The notes beneath the pieces are model-generated. The model worked only from the letters and a program-made list of their open reading frames with translations, was not told the origin of the DNA and did not search any database. This document shows, piece after piece, positions 23,284 to 64,000 of a DNA stretch of 64,000 nucleotides. Source of the stretch: a phage; the sequence record OZ346187.1; one strand, given 5' to 3'. The position numbers and the translations under genes were made by a program. Every line of letters begins with the position of its first letter. Position 1 is the stretch's first letter.

Positions 23284-23374
23284 ATAGTATCACCTCTGGT
23301 AAGAGATTGGGATTCCTTTCCCACAAATAATTACAAACCTTCCTTATCGAGGAAGTATGCTAATCCAAGCAGGA

Positions 23375-23644
23375 TTATTCCTCTACAATCTCATACACAT
23401 CCGGAGTTACAATCAACTCTTCTCCGTTACCCGGTGCAACAAACACCACCATGCCTTCAGGTGTGTGCTTTTTAGCCATCTCGATAACATCTTCTCGCAG
23501 AGCTGGCTCCATCAGATCAAAACCTTCACCCAGGGCATCACGAACCACCTTCATATAGTCAACTGGTTGTGCTTCGACAATCATACCTTCAACCAGTCCA
23601 CAGTTTTTGTCTGCCAGCTCAGTTTTGAATAATTTAATTTTCAT
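23375..23644 (-). CDS. hypothetical protein (small-protein paralog group)
   Basis: 89 aa; MKIKLFK start, ends ...YEIVEE. Confidence 0.4.
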   Translation of the reverse strand: MKIKLFKTELADKNCGLVEGMIVEAQPVDYMKVVRDALGEGFDLMEPALREDVIEMAKKHTPEGMVVFVAPGNGEELIVTPDVYEIVEE

Positions 23645-23781
23645 TTAGAGGTCTCCTCAATTATTTGATATTAATAGCCGTAACCTAACACATTAACTAC
23701 AACTGCGATTGCAAACATAATTTCAAAGCATGCAATCTCTACATTTGGAACTAATTTCTTGATCACACCCATTGTAGCACC

Positions 23782-24099
23782 TCATTCTCTAAAGTCAATC
23801 TTTACTTTGCCTTTCCCCTTACCTTTCTTTCCACCGCATTTAGCCAGTTGACGTGCTGCAACATCTACCATACGGTCAGTTGCCTCGTAAGCATCACTGC
23901 CTTTAGCTTTGGCAATAACTTCTTTTCCAGAATTGTCAAAAATGAACGCCATAACTTCCTGGTGATCATTTTCAACTTTTACACTCACACGTGCATAGTT
24001 GGCAGAGGGATGCAAACGCTCCAGCTTAGACATTTTGTGGGAAATGAAAGACACCATACCTTCAGTGATTTCTACGTTGCCAGTGATTTCAATTTGCAT
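23782..24099 (-). CDS. hpf: ribosome hibernation promoting factor / RaiA-like protein
   Basis: MQIEITGNVEITEG...KLERL...VKVE...DAYEA.D...RQLAK with basic tail follows the bacterial HPF/YfiA pattern (MQLNITGNNVEITEAL...KL...). Confidence 0.6.
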   Translation of the reverse strand: MQIEITGNVEITEGMVSFISHKMSKLERLHPSANYARVSVKVENDHQEVMAFIFDNSGKEVIAKAKGSDAYEATDRMVDVAARQLAKCGGKKGKGKGKVKIDFRE

Positions 24100-27133: not shown

Positions 27134-27595
27134 CTACTTAAATAGTAGTCCAAAATAGTGCAAAATTAACAGAAGTTGAACTACACCTAGTGCAACGGCG
27201 AGTATGTTAATCTTAGAATCGAAAAACTTCTTAACTTTTACTCTAAAAGGTTCCTTAATGTCCTTTACGATCCTATTTATAGATGATTTCATATCCCTGA
27301 TTACCATCCTAAACATTAGAGACGGATCTTCCTTCTCTGTAATAGAATCGAAAACATACTCTCTTCGGTCATAAGGACCTCCAGATCTGCGTATTAACCT
27401 CTCCACAGAGACCTCGTACGACACACCTGTAACGTAATCATCTATGATAAGTAGTGACGGGTCTTTATCGTCCAAGGGTATTAAAGTTATCTTTCCAGAT
27501 TTTGTTAAAATTTCTCCTTTTTCAAGCAAGGTGTACCAATGCTCTCTACCAAGATTGTTGAGGCACGTTTTTACATATTTAACAAACATCGTCAC
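27134..27595 (-). CDS. hypothetical protein with C-terminal transmembrane segment
   Basis: Ends ...ILAVALGVVQLLLILHYFGLLFK. Confidence 0.4.
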   Translation of the reverse strand: MTMFVKYVKTCLNNLGREHWYTLLEKGEILTKSGKITLIPLDDKDPSLLIIDDYVTGVSYEVSVERLIRRSGGPYDRREYVFDSITEKEDPSLMFRMVIRDMKSSINRIVKDIKEPFRVKVKKFFDSKINILAVALGVVQLLLILHYFGLLFK

Positions 27596-28789: not shown

Positions 28790-29019
28790 TCCTCCACAAC
28801 TTCAAGGCCTTTACCGCCTCGCTCTGGCAGATTACTTAAAGATAGGTAATACATATAATCAGGAGAGATCCTGCCAGACTCTGCACCTGCAGCTAGTAAA
28901 TCCTTCCCTTTAACCAGGACAACATTCTCGTTTGCAGATAGCCGTTTTGCTTCCACAATTTTACCAACACAGTCAACCAAGGAAGGGTACCCTAAATCTG
29001 TAAGAAATTTAACTTTCAT
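28786..29019 (-). CDS. hypothetical protein (small-protein paralog group)
   Basis: MKVKFLTD...GKDLLAAGA...LEVVEE. Confidence 0.45.
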   Translation of the reverse strand: MKVKFLTDLGYPSLVDCVGKIVEAKRLSANENVVLVKGKDLLAAGAESGRISPDYMYYLSLSNLPERGGKGLEVVEE

Positions 29020-29056
29020 GCTACCTCCTACCTACCATCCCTGGTAAGATAAATTA

Positions 29057-29455
29057 TTACTGAACAGAGCGCGGTGCTGGGAAGGATAACTCTTCTAAAG
29101 AGAAGATTTCATTTCCTACCACCCAAGTTGCTGGGTCATCTGGATCAACAGGTTGGATAATCATTACCTCATCAGCCTCGCACACACGTTTCCCACCCAT
29201 AGTAGCGTCAGCCACTAACATACGCGGCTCTTCAGAAATGCACAGGTAGCCACCTCGGCCCACTGTTCCTTCCACGGGATCCTGCCCTTTGACCACAATG
29301 AATACCTTCTCTCCTGTGGCGATATTACTTTTCACACTAACAGTTTGACCAACTTTAGATGTACCGATCTTGGTGGCTTCAAACATTAAATCCCGAATTA
29401 CTGTTGCATAGTTGCCGGACACTTTCTTACCTTCTTTAGTAATCTCAATCTTCAT
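29057..29455 (-). CDS. hypothetical protein (extended member of small-protein paralog group)
   Basis: MKIEITK start; internal VFIVVKGQDPVEG resembles the family core. Confidence 0.4.
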   Translation of the reverse strand: MKIEITKEGKKVSGNYATVIRDLMFEATKIGTSKVGQTVSVKSNIATGEKVFIVVKGQDPVEGTVGRGGYLCISEEPRMLVADATMGGKRVCEADEVMIIQPVDPDDPATWVVGNEIFSLEELSFPAPRSVQ

Positions 29456-29727
29456 AATCTAGGCTCCTTAAATGAATCTATGTAATCAATTAAATCCCAA
29501 GCATCGCGATGGGCTGTCAGAGGGTATACTTCTCCGAGAGGGATCATAGCAATAAGTCTATCAAAAACCCAGTCTGGACGCAACATTTTATGGTGATATT
29601 CCCACTCACCTTCCACAGATTTTTTCTGAGTTATCAGGATCTCTGTGTAGTGTTTCTCCTGTCTTGAGTAGATTGAAAATGACTTGTACATAAATGACCC
29701 CCTCTTGTTGAAAACAACAATACACAA
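29452..29727 (-). CDS. hypothetical protein
   Basis: 91-aa ORF. Confidence 0.35.
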   Translation of the reverse strand: MCIVVFNKRGSFMYKSFSIYSRQEKHYTEILITQKKSVEGEWEYHHKMLRPDWVFDRLIAMIPLGEVYPLTAHRDAWDLIDYIDSFKEPRL

Positions 29728-30042
29728 CTACCAGGTTACTGTCAAGTAGGCAACCGTATTATTTTTCTCTGGGGAGATGCCAACAACATCTACCTGCAGA
29801 CCTCCTGCCCTTAAATCTCCAACAATGTGAGGGAAGTAATCTGAGAGATGCGAGGGTAGATTTATCGAAAATCCGCACCCCAGAAAGCCTGCTAACGCTT
29901 TATTTTGTATCTCCCCCACAATCGCATCATAAATGGAGTTAAGCTCGTCAGGGAGCGTTACAGGACGTTTTAGCGCTAACTGGTGTAATTTGTCCTTAGC
30001 ACTCATTTTCATTTCAGGTCTACCTCTGGAGGTGCCAACCAC
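29728..30042 (-). CDS. hypothetical protein
   Basis: 104-aa ORF. Confidence 0.35.
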   Translation of the reverse strand: MVGTSRGRPEMKMSAKDKLHQLALKRPVTLPDELNSIYDAIVGEIQNKALAGFLGCGFSINLPSHLSDYFPHIVGDLRAGGLQVDVVGISPEKNNTVAYLTVTW

Positions 30043-30542
30043 ATAAACGGCGGCAAGTCTAAACGGTTTTTCTTATCCCACACAAAATATGCATATGCTT
30101 GCCCGTCAGTTCTGCCGTTTGATTGAAATGATGGACGCTTAGATATTGTGATCACAGTAGTAGGTGCATTATCAAGCCACCATTCAAATCTGGCTTTGCT
30201 TTCCAGAAAATTAAGACGCAAAAGCATAATAACTACGTCAGCATCTTTCAACGCCTTGTCTACAAACTCACGAGCCAGGCTGTATGGTGGGTTGGTGATA
30301 ATACAGTCAACATGGTTGTATTCTGTATTCAGATAGTCAACACCTTCTTGTATTTCTCCCCATGCAGATCCTAACGGCATACGGGAGTAGAACACACCTG
30401 AGGCACTATTCCTGCAAGGCTCTAAGTAGGTCCAGTCTTCTGGGAACGGAATAAGGTCATACAGCCCTTCTGCACACCACTCCGGTGTCACATACTCATC
30501 GTAGGCGTTACGTTGTTCATCAGGTTTTCGAGCACAAGTCAT
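30009..30542 (-). CDS. phage-type N6-adenine DNA methyltransferase (short form)
   Basis: DCIITNPPY catalytic motif (NPPY); YLEPC..SASG upstream; 177 aa. Confidence 0.5.
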   Translation of the reverse strand: MTCARKPDEQRNAYDEYVTPEWCAEGLYDLIPFPEDWTYLEPCRNSASGVFYSRMPLGSAWGEIQEGVDYLNTEYNHVDCIITNPPYSLAREFVDKALKDADVVIMLLRLNFLESKARFEWWLDNAPTTVITISKRPSFQSNGRTDGQAYAYFVWDKKNRLDLPPFMWLAPPEVDLK

Positions 30543-30593
30543 GCAAATCTCCAGATCATAAAAGCCCTCCGAAGAGGGCTTTAGAATTAATGT

Positions 30594-31643
30594 TTAAGCT
30601 TCTTCGACAATTCCTGCACCCAGGATTTTTTCATTGAGCTCTTTTGCTGTTTTAATAATATTGTCCACCAGACGCTTGCGAGTCTTATCTTTTACCTTAA
30701 CCTCTTCACCGCCGTTTAGGGTTGTCTTCAATTGGGACAAAATGTCTTGAAGTTCAACGACAGAGAATCGCTGCAGATCTTCTGAGGTAATCTCACCTAA
30801 GGCAATCTTAACGGTCTCACCACTTTCCATCTGCAGGTTCAGGAACACAGTGTGAACATCACCTTTCGAACCACCAGCTTTTGCAGATTCAACAGCATGA
30901 ACTAACTCATCTAAAGAGGTACACTGGTGAATCTCCGGGAGACCTGCTTCACCTAACACACCTTCTTCATCACCTTTTGCCAGAAGCTTTTTCGGTTTTT
31001 GTCCGTTCTGGATGCGTTGTATGTTACCTTCATCCAGAATGATAGCTCCAGTTCGAGCTGCCAGCTCCTCTCCGTCCAACCACACTTCACCACCAGCTGT
31101 GATGGATGCGATCTCATCTTCTGTCAGCACCCAACCGTAGTATTTTTCGATCAGGCGTTCGAAACGCTTTTTCCAGTAGCTGACCTGAGTATTCATGTTC
31201 ACACCGTTACCATAAGTGCCACCTTGATAGTAGTGGAACATAAATTCTGTGTCCGGAGCCACAGTACGTTCTTTGCAACCCAGCCATAAGATTGTTCCCG
31301 CAGAGCAGCACATCCCTTCCGCATGTGCAACAACGCTTGCCTGAGACTCGCGGAATGCCTGCAGATAAGCCATCGCAATGTGCACGCAACCACCAGGGCT
31401 GTTAATGATCACTCGAATGCTTTCTTCAGGCTGAGCCATACGGATCGTCTGCAGGCGAGACATATGATCCTGCAGGTCTTCCAAATCGTCGATATAAAGA
31501 ACGTGGTCAACAACAGGTGTTGGGTAGCTGTATGTCTCCATAATACCACCCGGCATACCGAACATTTTATTACTCATAGGTTCGAAACCGTTCTGTTTTT
31601 CTTTCATGCCGTGTACCATGGTGCTGCGAGGTGTTAAATTCAT
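30594..31643 (-). CDS. ClpP-like serine peptidase with C-terminal extension
   Basis: INSPGG and GMCCSAG motifs resemble the ClpP/S14 core; 349 aa. Confidence 0.45.
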   Translation of the reverse strand: MNLTPRSTMVHGMKEKQNGFEPMSNKMFGMPGGIMETYSYPTPVVDHVLYIDDLEDLQDHMSRLQTIRMAQPEESIRVIINSPGGCVHIAMAYLQAFRESQASVVAHAEGMCCSAGTILWLGCKERTVAPDTEFMFHYYQGGTYGNGVNMNTQVSYWKKRFERLIEKYYGWVLTEDEIASITAGGEVWLDGEELAARTGAIILDEGNIQRIQNGQKPKKLLAKGDEEGVLGEAGLPEIHQCTSLDELVHAVESAKAGGSKGDVHTVFLNLQMESGETVKIALGEITSEDLQRFSVVELQDILSQLKTTLNGGEEVKVKDKTRKRLVDNIIKTAKELNEKILGAGIVEEA

Positions 31644-31703
31644 GAGAAATCCTTAATATTGGAAGTTGAAAGCTATTTATTTAAACCTGATTCACATTTA
31701 CCT

Positions 31704-32015
31704 TTATTTAGCAATCACTAGTGAATACTTACGATTGTCAGAAGCATCACAGCTCAATGATTGCCAGTCTACCACATACCACGTATCATTGTCAACAATT
31801 ACTTTATCGCCTGTTCTGTAGCAGGTACTGCTTTCAATAATCCGAGACTCGATAAAGAATCTGTGTCGGCGCTCACGTAGCAACGCTAAGTTGATTATAT
31901 TACCACCGCTGTCCTTGATCCACACATTCTTGGATCCTTTATTTGCCAAAATTGTCTCGCCGTTGTAGACAAACAGGCAGTATATTTTATTCAGTTTCTC
32001 TTGTATTGTAGCCAT
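31704..32015 (-). CDS. hypothetical protein
   Basis: 103-aa ORF. Confidence 0.4.
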   Translation of the reverse strand: MATIQEKLNKIYCLFVYNGETILANKGSKNVWIKDSGGNIINLALLRERRHRFFIESRIIESSTCYRTGDKVIVDNDTWYVVDWQSLSCDASDNRKYSLVIAK

Positions 32016-32116
32016 ACTGTCCTTCTCTCTGTTTTGTCCGATAATAATATCTAAAGCTTACCTATTTGTCAACAACTGTTTTAGATATTTAAGGGTGGAA
32101 TAACCACCCTTCTGTA

Positions 32117-32905
32117 TTACTCGGAAACAGGGGTCCAAATATGGTTTGCACGATCCTCAATAAGATTGAGTGCGATCTGACGACCCAACCCGGAACGAAC
32201 GACATCGTCTGGACTATCAAAGCTGATCATTCCAACCTCAGGATCTGGATGACGAGTAAAGAAATCCGTCACCCATGCAAGGCCAGATTTACCAGGGATG
32301 TCACGTTGGCTATTATCACCCATAATTACAAGGGTGGCCTGATCAGAGATCCTTGTGATAATTGACAACATTTCTTCAGGGTTAGTTTGCTGTGCCTCGT
32401 CAATCAGGACAAAGCATCGCTCATCGAAACTACGACCACGAATGCTTTCAACTTCACAAATCTCGATACGACTGTTCTGACCGTCTCCCAGCATTGCGGC
32501 AAAAGCACCTTTGCCAACACGACGACAAATCGTGTCCATCATGCTTCGAAGATAGGGCCACAGTTTCTGCATTGCATTTCCGGGTTTAAATCCTGAAGTC
32601 TTTCCTGTCTGGACGTAAGGACGTGCAACAATGATCTTATCAATCTCGTTCTTACGCAGAAGATCACCTGCATATGCAGATGCCATAAATGTCTTACCGG
32701 ATCCAAACACACCGTTTACAATAATAATCTTACGTGACCCCAGATAATCAAGATACTTTTGCTGCTTCTTATTCATTGGTCGGAGAGCTGGAGCGGTGTG
32801 CTCTCTTTCGTCAGCAAATTTCTCAGCAGCCTTACGCAGGCGATCAGATTTGCGAGCCTCTCTAGCTTCATCACGCATGCGTTTTGTTTCTTTAGCTCGA
32901 CCCAT
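32117..32905 (-). CDS. phoH: PhoH-like ATPase
   Basis: Walker A GVFGSGKT; overall PhoH-like organisation. Confidence 0.7.
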   Translation of the reverse strand: MGRAKETKRMRDEAREARKSDRLRKAAEKFADEREHTAPALRPMNKKQQKYLDYLGSRKIIIVNGVFGSGKTFMASAYAGDLLRKNEIDKIIVARPYVQTGKTSGFKPGNAMQKLWPYLRSMMDTICRRVGKGAFAAMLGDGQNSRIEICEVESIRGRSFDERCFVLIDEAQQTNPEEMLSIITRISDQATLVIMGDNSQRDIPGKSGLAWVTDFFTRHPDPEVGMISFDSPDDVVRSGLGRQIALNLIEDRANHIWTPVSE

Positions 32906-32943
32906 GTTGGGACTCCTTTCAGATTGAGATGTGCCAAGTACTT

Positions 32944-33294
32944 TTACTGCAACAGTTTTTCAATAGCCGCTTCCATGCTGCTTGCAACAGCCTGAACTCG
33001 GATATTCATCTCTTCTTGGTGGATCAGCTCCTTAAGCTCTTTAATGGTAAATTCTTTAGAGAAACCTTCCACCATAATCTTGTGCAAGGCTTCTTGCGTG
33101 TCTACTTGCAAGAACTTTTCCAGTTTGTTGGCAGAGGCTTCTAAATCAGCCCGAATACGAGGGTCATCTGTGCGATTCAGCATTAGGCGTAAGCCATCAA
33201 GATTAGTAGAAATAGCATCTGCATGTTGAGTAACTAACCGTGGCAAAATGAGGTCTACAAACTTATTAGCCAAATCGATACGTTCTTGTGTCAC
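32944..33294 (-). CDS. hypothetical protein
   Basis: 116-aa ORF. Confidence 0.4.
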   Translation of the reverse strand: MTQERIDLANKFVDLILPRLVTQHADAISTNLDGLRLMLNRTDDPRIRADLEASANKLEKFLQVDTQEALHKIMVEGFSKEFTIKELKELIHQEEMNIRVQAVASSMEAAIEKLLQ

Positions 33295-61441: not shown

Positions 61442-61532
61442 GGAGGGTAGGGAGCAATGGTGCTCAAGCGGTCTTGAAAACCGTCCCGTTGAGGATGACT
61501 CGATGATGGTTCGATTCCATTACTCTCCGCCA
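61442..61532 (+). tRNA. tRNA-Ser (anticodon TGA), long variable arm
   Basis: Acceptor GGAGGGT/ACTCTCC, D-stem GAGC/GCTC, anticodon loop CTTGAAA, T-loop GGTTCGATTCC, CCA encoded. Confidence 0.6.
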
Positions 61533-61630
61533 CATTGTTGACCTTGTAATTAAGCGAAAGCCGGAAGCAGAACCGGATTATCAAATGTTACAGTCGTCAT
61601 CGCCGACTAGCAACATGGTCAACATACTGA

Positions 61631-61729
61631 GCTAGGTAAGCCCTTTGGCAAGGGCGAGGATTTTTAATCCTGAAAATAGACGAGGTAGTCGTTGAATACA
61701 TAGGTGGTTCGATTCCATCACCTAGCACC
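61631..61729 (+). tRNA. atypical tRNA-like gene (~99 nt), anticodon ambiguous (most consistent with TTT)
   Basis: Perfect 7-bp acceptor GCTAGGT/ACCTAGC, D-arm GCCC-TTTGGCAA-GGGC, T-arm GGTGG-TTCGATT-CCATC; anticodon stem imperfect with loop TTTTTAA; ~29-nt extra region before the T-arm; 3' end ACC then T (CCA not fully encoded). Confidence 0.35.
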
Positions 61730-61734
61730 TTTTT

Positions 61735-61810
61735 GCTGATGTAGCACAATCGGTAGTGCAATTGATTTGTAATCAATAGGTTGTAGGTTCAAGTCCTGCC
61801 ATCAGCACCA
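61735..61810 (+). tRNA. tRNA-Thr (anticodon TGT)
   Basis: Acceptor GCTGATG/CATCAGC, D-arm GCAC-AATCGGTA-GTGC, anticodon stem ATTGA/TCAAT with loop TTTGTAA, CCA encoded. Confidence 0.7.
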
Positions 61811-61811
61811 A

Positions 61812-61886
61812 GGCCCTGTAGCTGGAAGGTTCAAGCAAGCGACTCATAATCGCCAGACGGTGGTTCAATTCCACCCAGGGCCACCA
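61812..61886 (+). tRNA. tRNA-Met (anticodon CAT; initiator, elongator or Ile-lysidine type not resolved)
   Basis: Acceptor GGCCCTG/CAGGGCC, anticodon loop CTCATAA, T-arm GGTGG-TTCAATT-CCACC, CCA encoded. Confidence 0.65.
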
Positions 61887-61897
61887 AATAGTAAATA

Positions 61898-61974
61898 CTC
61901 CGCGTAGCTCAGCTTGGTAGAGCGCCTGATTTGGGATCAGGAGGTCGAGTGTTCGAATCACTCCGTGGAGACCA
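61898..61974 (+). tRNA. tRNA-Pro (anticodon TGG)
   Basis: Acceptor CTCCGCG/CGTGGAG, D-arm GCTC-AGCTTGGTA-GAGC, anticodon stem CCTGA/TCAGG with loop TTTGGGA, T-arm GAGTG-TTCGAAT-CACTC, CCA encoded. Confidence 0.7.
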
Positions 61975-62020
61975 CTTTCAGTTATACTTTAAACATATAT
62001 AAACAAAAGGAACCTTTAAA

Positions 62021-62290
62021 ATGTATACACTTAAAATTGTAGAGCGTGTAAATCCAACTCATACCGTAGATTTTCGTGACGATTTCAATCCTCTGGCTGT
62101 AAATCTTCGAGAGTCATATCATGAACTCAGCTGCGATGCAGTGGTGGTCTTTTTTGAAGACAACTCTGAAGGGGCGGTAGCTTGTGTTGTTGATAGTGAG
62201 CAGAAGTTTTATATTTACAGAGATGTAGATGCATACTTGATGAATGAAAATGCAGTTACTGTTAGAATCATCCACCGAGTGCCTCGATAA
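62021..62290 (+). CDS. hypothetical protein
   Basis: 89-aa ORF after AAAGGAAC; followed by terminator. Confidence 0.45.
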   Translation: MYTLKIVERVNPTHTVDFRDDFNPLAVNLRESYHELSCDAVVVFFEDNSEGAVACVVDSEQKFYIYRDVDAYLMNENAVTVRIIHRVPR

Positions 62291-62342
62291 GTATTAGTCT
62301 CCTTTTAGTTAGTTTCGATCTATTTAGGTTACTCAATTTTAA

Positions 62343-62377
62343 CCCGCCCCGTTAGCTGTATAGCTGCGGGGTTTTTT
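62343..62377 (+). terminator. rho-independent terminator
   Basis: GC-rich hairpin CCGCCCCG...CGGGG followed by TTTTTT. Confidence 0.55.
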
Positions 62378-62395
62378 CGTTTCTGGAGCCTTAAA

Positions 62396-62794
62396 ATGAT
62401 TTCAGTTTTAACATGGCTGAGCAGGTATAAAGGGATCATAAAAGGTTTAGTTTTTGCAGCTGCGATAGGTACAGCTTATCTTGGGGCCGTGTATTGGTTT
62501 AACTCTAAGCTTAATGATGCCTACCAAGAAGGTGTGTCAGCAACAGAGTTAAAGTGGGAACGGATCCTTGATCAGCAACAAAAGCAGGCCGACAAAATTA
62601 AAATGGGCCACGCAGAGGAGGTTAAAAACCTTGAAAAATCCCTTTCTGATCTGCAGGATAAATTAAATATAGCTGAGAAGGCAGGTAAAGAAAAGCAGAT
62701 TATCTACCTCCAGTCACCTGAAGGCAAGAAGTCAACACTTCCTGATCAGCTTATAGATATTTATAATGAGAGTATCAATCAGGAGGATCAATGA
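62396..62794 (+). CDS. inner-membrane spanin (i-spanin, Rz-like)
   Basis: N-terminal TM segment GLVFAAAIGTAYLGAVYWF followed by charged coiled-coil; followed directly by a lipoprotein gene. Confidence 0.6.
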   Translation: MISVLTWLSRYKGIIKGLVFAAAIGTAYLGAVYWFNSKLNDAYQEGVSATELKWERILDQQQKQADKIKMGHAEEVKNLEKSLSDLQDKLNIAEKAGKEKQIIYLQSPEGKKSTLPDQLIDIYNESINQEDQ

Positions 62795-63078
62795 GAGTTG
62801 CTACACTGTTTATTGTGTGCTTGTTATTATGTGGGTGTGCAACCAGCGTTGAGAGAGAATACAAGATTGACCCTCCTGATGTAGGAAGGTTGATTGTTAA
62901 ACCCCCGGAAGGTGCCATGAAACCACCTGCTAAAGCTATGCCTTTGAAGAAAGGTGCGCCAGATGCAGTGAATTCTGGCATTATGAGGGATAATAATCTG
63001 TCTTGTAGCAATGATAGAGCTAAATTGATCATTTTGCAAGACTATATTAGAACACTTTTTCCAAAGGAGAGAGGTTAA
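62791..63078 (+). CDS. outer-membrane spanin (o-spanin, Rz1-like lipoprotein)
   Basis: Signal peptide with lipobox LLCGC, proline-rich mature region; start overlaps the i-spanin stop. Confidence 0.6.
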   Translation: MRVATLFIVCLLLCGCATSVEREYKIDPPDVGRLIVKPPEGAMKPPAKAMPLKKGAPDAVNSGIMRDNNLSCSNDRAKLIILQDYIRTLFPKERG

Positions 63079-63503
63079 TGTCTAAGATTTACGGACCGTG
63101 TTCTGAAAAGCAGAAGATGATCCTAGAAAACGATGCAGATATTTTGGTAATCGGCGGTGCCGCAGGGTCTGGCAAGTCGTTCCTCTTGCAATTGATGCCA
63201 CTTAAAATTATTGATGACCCCCACAGCTCTGTGGTTATGTTCCGAAGAACAACCCCACAGTTGGAAGGTGAGGGTGGATTATGGCCTAAAGCAGTAGCTA
63301 TTTATAGTGATCTGCCTGAAAACATTAAGCCAAAGTTTAGAGAGAAGGATCATAAGTTCATTTTTCCACGGTTTGATCCGAACACTGGCAAGTGGGATAG
63401 AAGCAAAAAGGGAGCTGTTGTAAAATACTGCCACATGGAGTATGTACAAGATAAGCTTAACCATCAGGGGCTTGAGTACACCATGGTTTGCTTCGATGAG
63501 GGT
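63078..63503 (+). CDS. terL: terminase large subunit, exon 1 (ATPase N-terminus)
   Basis: Walker A GGAAGSGKS, Walker B MVCFDEG; ORF stop 63504-63506 falls immediately after the proposed 5' splice site (exon ends in U). Confidence 0.5.
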
Positions 63504-64000
63504 TAATTTGTAGCTCTCGTAAAACCTCCCTAATTGCGGGGAAATCTTTATTATTGACACCACCAACCTGTCATGGTAACATGACAGAGGCTTCGAAGAG
63601 AGATCGAAGGTATGGTAACAGTGTGTTAATTTAGATAATCCGCAGCGAAGCATCCGAGAGGATGAACGTTCAACGACTAGTCGAAAGACGTAGAATCAAG
63701 CGATTCGAAACGGGAGGGTGAATGTGTAATACTAAGAAATGTATGGATTGCCAAAGAGTTCTACCTATTGATGATTTCTTTTTATCATCTAAGAGCAAGG
63801 ATGGATACTCAGGTACATGCAAGGAATGCTATATGTACTACAGGAAGGGTGGATCTCGTAAAAACAAAAATATGGTTAAGAGAGATGATGCAGCATTGTT
63901 TATTCAAGACTTGCTGAAGAAAGGTGAACTTTTTGAATGCAAATCTTGTCATGAAAGTATGCTCGCTGATAGTTTTTACACAAAACGTGACTATGGTAAA
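63504..64000 (+). mobile_element. group I intron in terL (3' end beyond window)
   Basis: P element AATTGCGGGGAAA (63531), Q element AATCCGCAGC (63640), R element GTTCAACGACTAG (63682), followed by an RBS and ORF. Confidence 0.6.
63722..64000 (+). CDS. intron-encoded zinc-finger protein, probable homing endonuclease (3' partial)
   Basis: ATG after GGGAGGGTGA RBS inside the intron; CxxC ... CxxC and CKSCH cysteine pairs; continues past window end. Confidence 0.4.
   Translation, partial: MCNTKKCMDCQRVLPIDDFFLSSKSKDGYSGTCKECYMYYRKGGSRKNKNMVKRDDAALFIQDLLKKGELFECKSCHESMLADSFYTKRDYGK

Follow-up and report, generated by a model that had tools for sequence, protein, structure and literature searches.

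What is a ClpP-like peptidase gene doing among the replication and nucleotide-metabolism genes of a virulent phage, on the opposite strand from the capsid genes? The question is raised by the reading frame that starts at position 31643 and ends at position 30594, on the minus strand, of the phage DNA analysed here (64,000 nucleotides of sequence record OZ346187.1, called the window throughout). The complete coding sequence specifies 349 residues that are 100% identical to gp104 of Escherichia phage APECc02 (KR698074/NC_041869; Vequintavirus, 135.4 kb), and the window is 100% identical to APECc02 from 29000 to 33000 (window position equals NC_041869 record position minus 17730). The protein, referred to here as gp104, corresponds to gp122 of phage rV5 and belongs to PHROG 5410. 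It is labelled "ATP-dependent protease" in APECc02 and "ClpP (ATP-dependent) protease subunit" in rV5, and more than 100 near-identical GenBank records carry a Clp-protease label on this gene. Both gp104 and PHROG 5410 were thus already catalogued and hold no surprise for the rV5-like group. The evidence set out below makes it likely that gp104 is a stand-alone ClpP-fold serine peptidase, a member of a phage-specific branch (PHROG 5410/1827) found in DNA-metabolism blocks, with no role in capsid maturation or with ClpX or ClpA.

Fold and active site

The ClpP-fold catalytic core spans residues 45-212 (window 31008-31511, minus strand, as for all gp104 segments) and is predicted with a predicted local distance difference test score (pLDDT) of ~90 in an AlphaFold (AF2) monomer model built on 16 homologs. 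It had been recognised from the sequence by the motifs INSPGG (residues 80-85) and GMCCSAG (residues 110-116), and this recognition is borne out by a Pfam CLP_protease match (PF00574; 2.3e-12, 47.6 bits against a cutoff of 20.2), by the best PDB sequence matches, all of which are ClpP, and by Foldseek, where the top 50 PDB matches to the model are likewise all ClpP (E ~2e-9, target-normalised template-modelling score 0.63-0.75, ~20% identity). The handle region (Gly-rich loop and helix E) is similar in length to that of ClpP. The N-terminal 44 residues (31512-31643), which are low-confidence or disordered (pLDDT 32-37) and contain a family-conserved FG.PG...YP.P motif, have no sequence similarity to the ClpP axial loops or helix A. 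Residues 1-43 fall below pLDDT 50 in the monomer model, and the hhalign match starts only at Y40, placing a Pro-rich segment on ClpP helix A.

HMMER, hhalign and MAFFT alignments agree in pairing Ser114 (codon 31302-31304) with ClpP Ser97, His137 (codon 31233-31235) with His122 and Gly85 with the oxyanion residue Gly68, the E. coli ClpP reference being an exact match to PDB 3MT6 (residues 1-207). All 16 close and all 12 distant homologs retain Ser114 and His137, and Gly85 is invariant too; such retention of all three over deep divergence suggests that catalysis is under selection. The third position is more variable. In three alignments Glu186 (codon 31086-31088) occupies the place of the canonical Asp171, and the column holds Gln in 13 of the 16 close relatives and in Barba8S, Asp in ICP1, Roth39 and VBP32, and Glu in PAK_P4 and phiPsa267. 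The arrangement in gp104 is most likely a Ser-His-Glu triad. D190 (in the segment WLD) was considered as the third member and ruled out; the three alignments pair Asp171 with E186, and D190 lies four residues further along the strand.

Beyond the core the original prediction had described a charged C-terminal extension of ~150 residues. An extension is present (residues 213-349, 137 residues, 31% charged), but it is not a mere charged tail: a disordered linker (residues 213-243, 30915-31007; pLDDT 35-40), variable in length and sequence across the alignment, leads into a folded, conserved domain (residues 244-349, 30597-30914) predicted to consist of a helix, a β-hairpin and three helices. The folded part (244-342) has pLDDT 75-90, and F293, E297 and R322 are invariant in the family alignment. 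The domain is an orphan. It matched no Pfam family and resembles neither the ICP1 tail nor a 325-residue head-module protein that is a scaffold candidate; a BFVD search returned a single match, a 303-residue protein of family-member-like length, and a search of 1.84 billion representative proteins returned six matches, made up of family members or fragments and one spurious leucine-rich-repeat protein. It is found only in Vequintavirinae relatives and is predicted to be compact, not elongated and scaffold-like. The PAK_P4, phiPsa267, Roth39 and VBP32 homologs have no C-terminal tail, and with many family members lacking any tail the function of the core appears to be independent of it.

Relationship to ClpP and loss of the unfoldase-docking pocket

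The ClpP/S14 identity proposed for gp104 holds for the fold and fails for family membership. Its score on TIGR00493 (ClpP) is 33.2 bits against a cutoff of 308.6 and on NF001368 and NF009205 it is 38-39 bits against cutoffs of 228-249; over the curated ClpP models as a whole the scores range from 21 to 39 bits against cutoffs of 228-361, and among ClpP models only the broad Pfam PF00574 passes. The surface that receives the unfoldase is lost as well. The ClpP pocket for the IGF/IGL loops of ClpX and ClpA is formed by L48, F49, A52, F82, L23, Y60, Y62, I90, M92, F112, L114 and L189 (bioRxiv 10.1101/820209). In gp104, L48 and F49 fall in a five-residue deletion, while Y60, F82, I90, M92 and F112 are replaced by R77, E99, H107, E109 and T127, which do not vary within the close family, and L114 is replaced by A129 (A or S across the family). 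Seven of the eight pocket positions examined closely are therefore deleted or polar, and the five substituted positions are polar in the distant stand-alone homologs also.

Compared with bacterial ClpP (S14, TIGR00493; E. coli PDB 1TYF/3MT6), gp104 thus shares the core fold (Foldseek target-normalised template-modelling score ~0.7), the Ser in G-x-x-x-S-x-G, the His in M-x-H-x-x-x-G-G, the oxyanion Gly and the length of the handle. It differs in its ~20% identity, in having Glu (Gln in most relatives) for Asp171, in the deleted or charged docking pocket, in a low-confidence 44-residue N-terminus unrelated in sequence and an extra 137-residue linker and domain, and in being a gene of a virulent phage. 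gp104 is ClpP by fold and not ClpP by family membership, and judging from these substitutions it probably cannot dock the host ClpX or ClpA motors. The label "ATP-dependent" is unsupported, because the ClpP cutoffs are failed, the docking pocket is lost and the N-terminus shows no sequence similarity to the gating region.

Other members of the ClpP/crotonase-like fold superfamily (lambda gpC, SppA of family S49, NfeD and SDH-type proteases) share the fold and give weak Pfam matches. For the NfeD and SDH types gp104 stays below the cutoffs (NfeD1b_N, 18.9 against 40; SDH_protease, 15.7 against 31.3; Clp_like_SDH, 23.9 against 250). In SppA-type enzymes the active site is a Ser-Lys dyad; for gp104 a Ser-His active site is indicated instead, since an invariant His137 takes the place of the ClpP general base.

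The head module and its own candidate protease

The gene had been noted to lie away from the structural genes of the window and was suggested, for that reason, perhaps not to be a prohead protease; capsid and scaffold genes immediately adjacent in the complete genome would have spoken for such a role. Both points stand. The closest packaging or head gene in the window is the split large-terminase gene (61454-63893, plus strand), ~30 kb from gp104, and the portal, XkdF-like protease, scaffold candidate, decoration protein and major capsid protein lie beyond the window end (NC_041869.1 81726-86211). When adjacency was checked in the complete genome, gp104 was found at 48.3-49.4 kb of the record on the minus strand and the region from portal to major capsid protein at 81.7-86.2 kb on the plus strand. 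In ICP1 and other genera, too, the peptidase gene lies apart from the head module. The large-terminase gene itself is split into two coding sequences by an endonuclease VII-like insert; terminase introns were already described in the rV5 paper.

The head genes run in the order portal (PHROG 113), gp212, the 325-residue protein, decoration protein and major capsid protein (Phage_cap_E). The product of the gene immediately following the portal, gp212, matches Pfam Peptidase_S78_2 (XkdF) at 8.7e-18 and 65 bits against a cutoff of 24, together with PHROG 3017 (head maturation), making it a candidate for the head module's own prohead protease. RefSeq labels gp212 (NC_041869.1 83350-83769; L002:33350-33769) 'DNA methyltransferase', which is probably wrong. 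In the cryo-electron microscopy structure of phi92 the head shell consists of major capsid and cement proteins only (PMC13450770), and because the shell holds nothing else, the two genes between the portal and the cement protein can be read as assembly factors.

Profile comparison of ClpP with the prohead-protease families, as had been proposed, places gp104 with the stand-alone PHROGs. Its match to PHROG 5410 scores 516 bits (7.7e-155; residues 24-345 on profile positions 4-322 of 323) and its match to PHROG 1827 scores 137 bits (1.3e-39), compared with 77 and 61 bits on head-maturation PHROGs. The ranking is reversed for two head-module relatives encoded beside capsid-like genes (L030 and L071), which score 134-152 bits on the head PHROGs and 57-68 on 1827 and 5410. 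On this evidence gp104 is probably not the prohead protease.

Stand-alone relatives in DNA-metabolism regions

Relatives of gp104 were found by tblastn in 1087 phage records. The stand-alone family PHROG 5410/1827, of which gp104 is a member, includes rV5 gp122, ICP1 gp211, PAK_P4 gp168, phiPsa267 gp047 and Barba8S gp076. Like gp104, its members lie in a DNA- and nucleotide-metabolism context and have a polar docking surface and a Ser-His-(D/E/Q) site; they differ at the C-terminus, where the ICP1 tail is unrelated to the gp104 domain and PAK_P4, phiPsa267, Roth39 and VBP32 are tailless. For gp104 itself, the reported setting among replication and nucleotide-metabolism genes is confirmed by its PhoH, NrdG/NrdD/NrdAB, ThyX and methyltransferase-like neighbours. 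A DNA-metabolism context is kept in KpS8, PAK_P4, phiPsa267, Barba8S, T5-like Proteus and Klebsiella phages, Vibrio phage D481 and ICP1. In phiPsa267 and PAK_P4 the order is the same (ClpP-like gene, dCMP deaminase, ligase, HD hydrolase), and in the T5-like phages the homolog follows the deoxynucleoside monophosphate (dNMP) kinase gene.

Two of these genomes bear on the capsid question. The head cluster of ICP1 (gp122-gp126 in the numbering of that phage), transcribed late, has among its products a predicted protease, gp125, while ICP1 gp211 stands at the end of a range containing genes that peak at 12 min. The homolog of the large Vibrio phage D481 has frd (dihydrofolate reductase) on one side and genes for DNA repair and a helicase function on the other, and its flanking genes carry T4-type annotations; in T4-type phages head maturation is carried out by a gp21-type protease.

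Marine viral contigs (L032:5869-6423, and similarly L042, L051, L062 and L067) contain a ClpP-like gene of ~185 residues beside phosphoribosyl transferase, QueE-like and exonuclease genes. The best PHROG of these short forms is named 'head maturation protease' (phrog_94), and a PHROG name can therefore mislead for stand-alone copies.

Proposed role and competing explanations

The reading that we consider likely, a stand-alone serine peptidase acting outside capsid maturation and apart from ClpX and ClpA, can be extended to a mode of action. The retained handle region suggests that gp104 would assemble into ClpP-like rings. These would need no AAA+ unfoldase, and their substrates would be peptides, or host or phage proteins that are either unfolded or specifically recruited. 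The protein would be made in the early-to-middle phase of infection alongside the DNA-metabolism genes. The C-terminus of ClpP is on the apical face of the ring, and the C-terminal domain of gp104 may for this reason be placed there as well, where, carried on its flexible linker, it would probably recruit a substrate or partner or gate entry. That the targets are host or phage regulatory proteins, as the original prediction ventured, is speculation.

Several points weigh against this assignment. The best curated match of gp104 is NF045542, a ClpP-related head-maturation protease model (60.3 bits against a cutoff of 120), so that the clade probably descended from head proteases and a morphogenetic role could persist. 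Proteases are often missing from mature virions, which makes negative proteomics a weak argument, and XkdF-family proteins such as gp212 are only 'putative' proteases. Nor is location decisive, because the leftward block also encodes a few proteins associated with the virion: the small rV5 virion proteins gp133, gp137 and gp152, detected by mass spectrometry, map 3-9 kb downstream of gp104. Expression timing is judged from ICP1 and predicted promoters, not from data on an rV5-like phage, the proposals of ring assembly and unfoldase independence derive from sequence, and the literature searched held no biochemical or genetic data on any family member of these phage ClpP-like proteins.

Much of this would be accommodated if gp104 were a capsid-maturation protease after all, either displaced from the head genes or additional to the one there; in the manner of protease-scaffold fusions, its C-terminal domain would bring it into procapsids, where it would process scaffold, portal or internal head proteins. 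NF045542 does rank ahead of all cellular ClpP models, the secondary PHROG matches are head-maturation families, and L030 and L071 share with gp104 the architecture of a ClpP core followed by a C-terminal extension, of ~200 residues in these two; virion proteins come from the same block and the protease assignment of gp212 is putative. More generally, the ClpP-related head-maturation proteases (NF045542; PHROGs 94, 133, 1684 and 2976) have in common with gp104 a phage-borne ClpP-like core and often a C-terminal extension. However, gp104 differs from them in reaching half of the NF045542 cutoff (the head-module relative L030 scores 107.8 bits on this model and 115 on the fusion model NF045540), in its reversed PHROG ranking, in its compact orphan C-terminal domain, unlike the scaffold candidate, and in its position outside the head module, 30 kb away on the other strand and behind sigma-70-like promoter candidates. 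The slot after the portal already holds a candidate protease, ICP1 has a separate predicted head protease, the neighbours of the D481 homolog are T4-type, and many family members have no C-terminal tail. The rV5 gene table, which gives virion mass-spectrometry evidence for 12 proteins, does not flag gp122. We regard a second head protease as unlikely.

A partnership with a PhoH-like ATPase, possibly through gp105, in which PhoH replaces ClpX or ClpA or delivers substrates, is suggested by gene order. A PhoH hidden Markov model (HMM) built from five phage PhoH proteins and applied to 94 loci placed PhoH on the same strand no more than ~2.5 kb upstream in 30 of them, a linkage kept although the peptidases share only 25-35% identity. 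These loci comprise nearly all those of the Vequintavirinae type, the ICP1-like ones, all those of the Otagovirus type and Barbavirus (they include L004, L006, L007, L010-L029, L090-L097 and L100). The invariant charged residues R77, E99, H107 and E109 on the former docking surface are also what a conserved new interface would be expected to contain. Yet inherited synteny is the simpler explanation of the linkage, because the phage groups share an ancestral replication module, and PhoH was not found in the 4-6 kb flanks examined for PAK_P4, the T5-like phages, D481, the N4-like VBP32 and the short forms from marine contigs. In the window, gp105 and the ClpP-like gene are set off from PhoH by a promoter candidate, and PhoH itself, an SF1-helicase-like NTPase tied to RNA metabolism, is not a known unfoldase. 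Such a partnership is accordingly quite improbable. A 253-residue gene 5' of the Roth39 homolog was considered as a mislabelled PhoH and rejected; it gave no match to the PhoH HMM, and its equivalent in a related T5-like phage is annotated as a dNMP kinase. We give equally little credence to a broader possibility, that gp104 is the proteolytic half of an unrecognised phage degradation system in which the charged surface binds a new partner (most obviously the syntenic PhoH-like ring NTPase, gp105 or both), or the C-terminal domain serves as gate or receptor, so that selected host proteins (defence or regulatory) would be destroyed during DNA replication.

Very improbable is a genuine ClpP subunit that would divert ATP-dependent proteolysis during infection, either by partnering host ClpX or ClpA or by forming mixed complexes with host ClpP. 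The ClpP fold, the conserved Ser and His, the retained handle, the Pfam CLP_protease match and the more than 100 GenBank labels are all consistent with it, but the curated scores (21-39 bits against 228-361), the invariant loss of the docking pocket at seven of eight positions and the lack of conservation of the N-terminal loops and helix A are not. No ClpX/ClpA-type Pfam domain was found in the five annotated phage ATPase or helicase genes scanned as candidates for a phage-encoded unfoldase; these are a DnaB-like helicase, a PIF1-like helicase, a small AAA_33 kinase-like protein and two proteins with no Pfam match. A Keio-collection screen with the V5-like phage LL12 reported lipopolysaccharide genes only, and clp is absent from the text of that paper (PMC7229145).

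That gp104 is a weakened or inactive ClpP-like protein acting by binding (as decoy, inhibitor or structural ring) is least probable of all, for while Gln at the Asp171 position leaves the classical triad incomplete in much of the family, Ser114, His137 and Gly85 are invariant, gp104 has Glu186, ICP1, Roth39 and VBP32 have Asp, and Listeria ClpP1, which has Asn here, is nevertheless active within a heterocomplex.

Transcription unit and neighbouring genes

Upstream of the ClpP-like gene on the same strand lie gp105 (31704-32015; 103 residues, PHROG 5456, unknown function) and a PhoH-like P-loop ATPase (32117-32905; Pfam PhoH 3.6e-47), the latter a recurrent upstream neighbour across phage genera. 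A consensus scan found two sigma-70-like promoter candidates, both on the minus strand: TTGACA-17-TATTAT (32044-32072; 11 of 12 consensus positions), between PhoH and gp105, and the TG-extended TTGACA-18-TAGACT (31766-31795), just 5' of the ClpP-like gene. A Shine-Dalgarno sequence, AAGGA, stands 6 nucleotides before the gp104 ATG. Directly 3' of the stop codon an intrinsic-terminator hairpin is predicted (30558-30582, minus strand; GCCCUC-UUCG-GAGGGC followed by UUUUAU), with a fold energy of -14.7 kcal/mol (z = -3.85). The same layout of promoter, promoter and terminator was predicted independently in the annotation of phage Gotham, including a PhagePromoter call at the position 5' of the ClpP-like gene. 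By these predictions gp105 and gp104 would form a short unit bounded by sigma-70-like promoters and a terminator, and gp105 is probably co-transcribed with the ClpP-like gene.

A gp105 counterpart sits at the equivalent position in Klebsiella phage KpS8, ahead of the ClpP-like gene. RefSeq labels gp105 'PhoH-like protein', despite its lack of a Pfam match and its membership of PHROG 5456; the name was probably borrowed from the adjoining gene. Downstream of gp104 follows a DNA methyltransferase-like gene (30009-30542, minus strand; PHROG 799), and the order of ClpP-like gene and then methyltransferase recurs in KpS8, Barba8S and Certrevirus.

These genes are part of a leftward-transcribed block of ~39 kb that contains NrdAB, NrdDG, ThyX, nucleases, ligase and methyltransferases. 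Between ~18 and 57 kb of the window the GC skew is negative, and its sign flips at ~18000 and ~57000, roughly where the annotated gene direction turns from rightward to leftward and back to rightward. Within the block, an open reading frame of 153 residues with a C-terminal hydrophobic segment (27134-27595, minus strand) corresponds to rV5 gp133, reported from mass spectrometry as a predominant virion protein despite its place in the early/middle block; the RefSeq coordinates of gp094 ('virion structural protein', the gene of rV5 gp133), mapped into the window, contain an internal stop. Two adjoining genes at ~23356-24081 (minus strand; NC_041869.1 41086-41811) are annotated as sigma-54 modulation or RaiA-type ribosome hibernation factors, not the usual content of a virulent phage genome. 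An HNH endonuclease interrupts the DNA polymerase gene (L001:10946-14565 region). By megablast, window 29000-33000 also matches 19 'Campylobacter phage' records, 17 of which name Campylobacter jejuni as host; these host labels look doubtful, or the samples may have been mixed.

Implications

The contribution of this analysis is a negative one: gp104 is probably neither a bona fide ClpXP or ClpAP subunit nor the protease of the head module. Stand-alone ClpP-like genes of this kind are widespread in large virulent phages, among them the rV5-like phages, which have been studied as agents of biocontrol and phage therapy, and also ICP1 and the PAK_P1-like phages. With no unfoldase-docking pocket and the ClpP cutoffs failed, the routine label "ATP-dependent Clp protease subunit" may well mislead. 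If the substrates of these peptidases were found, they could show that taking over the host, or controlling the DNA metabolism of the phage, involves a step of proteolysis.

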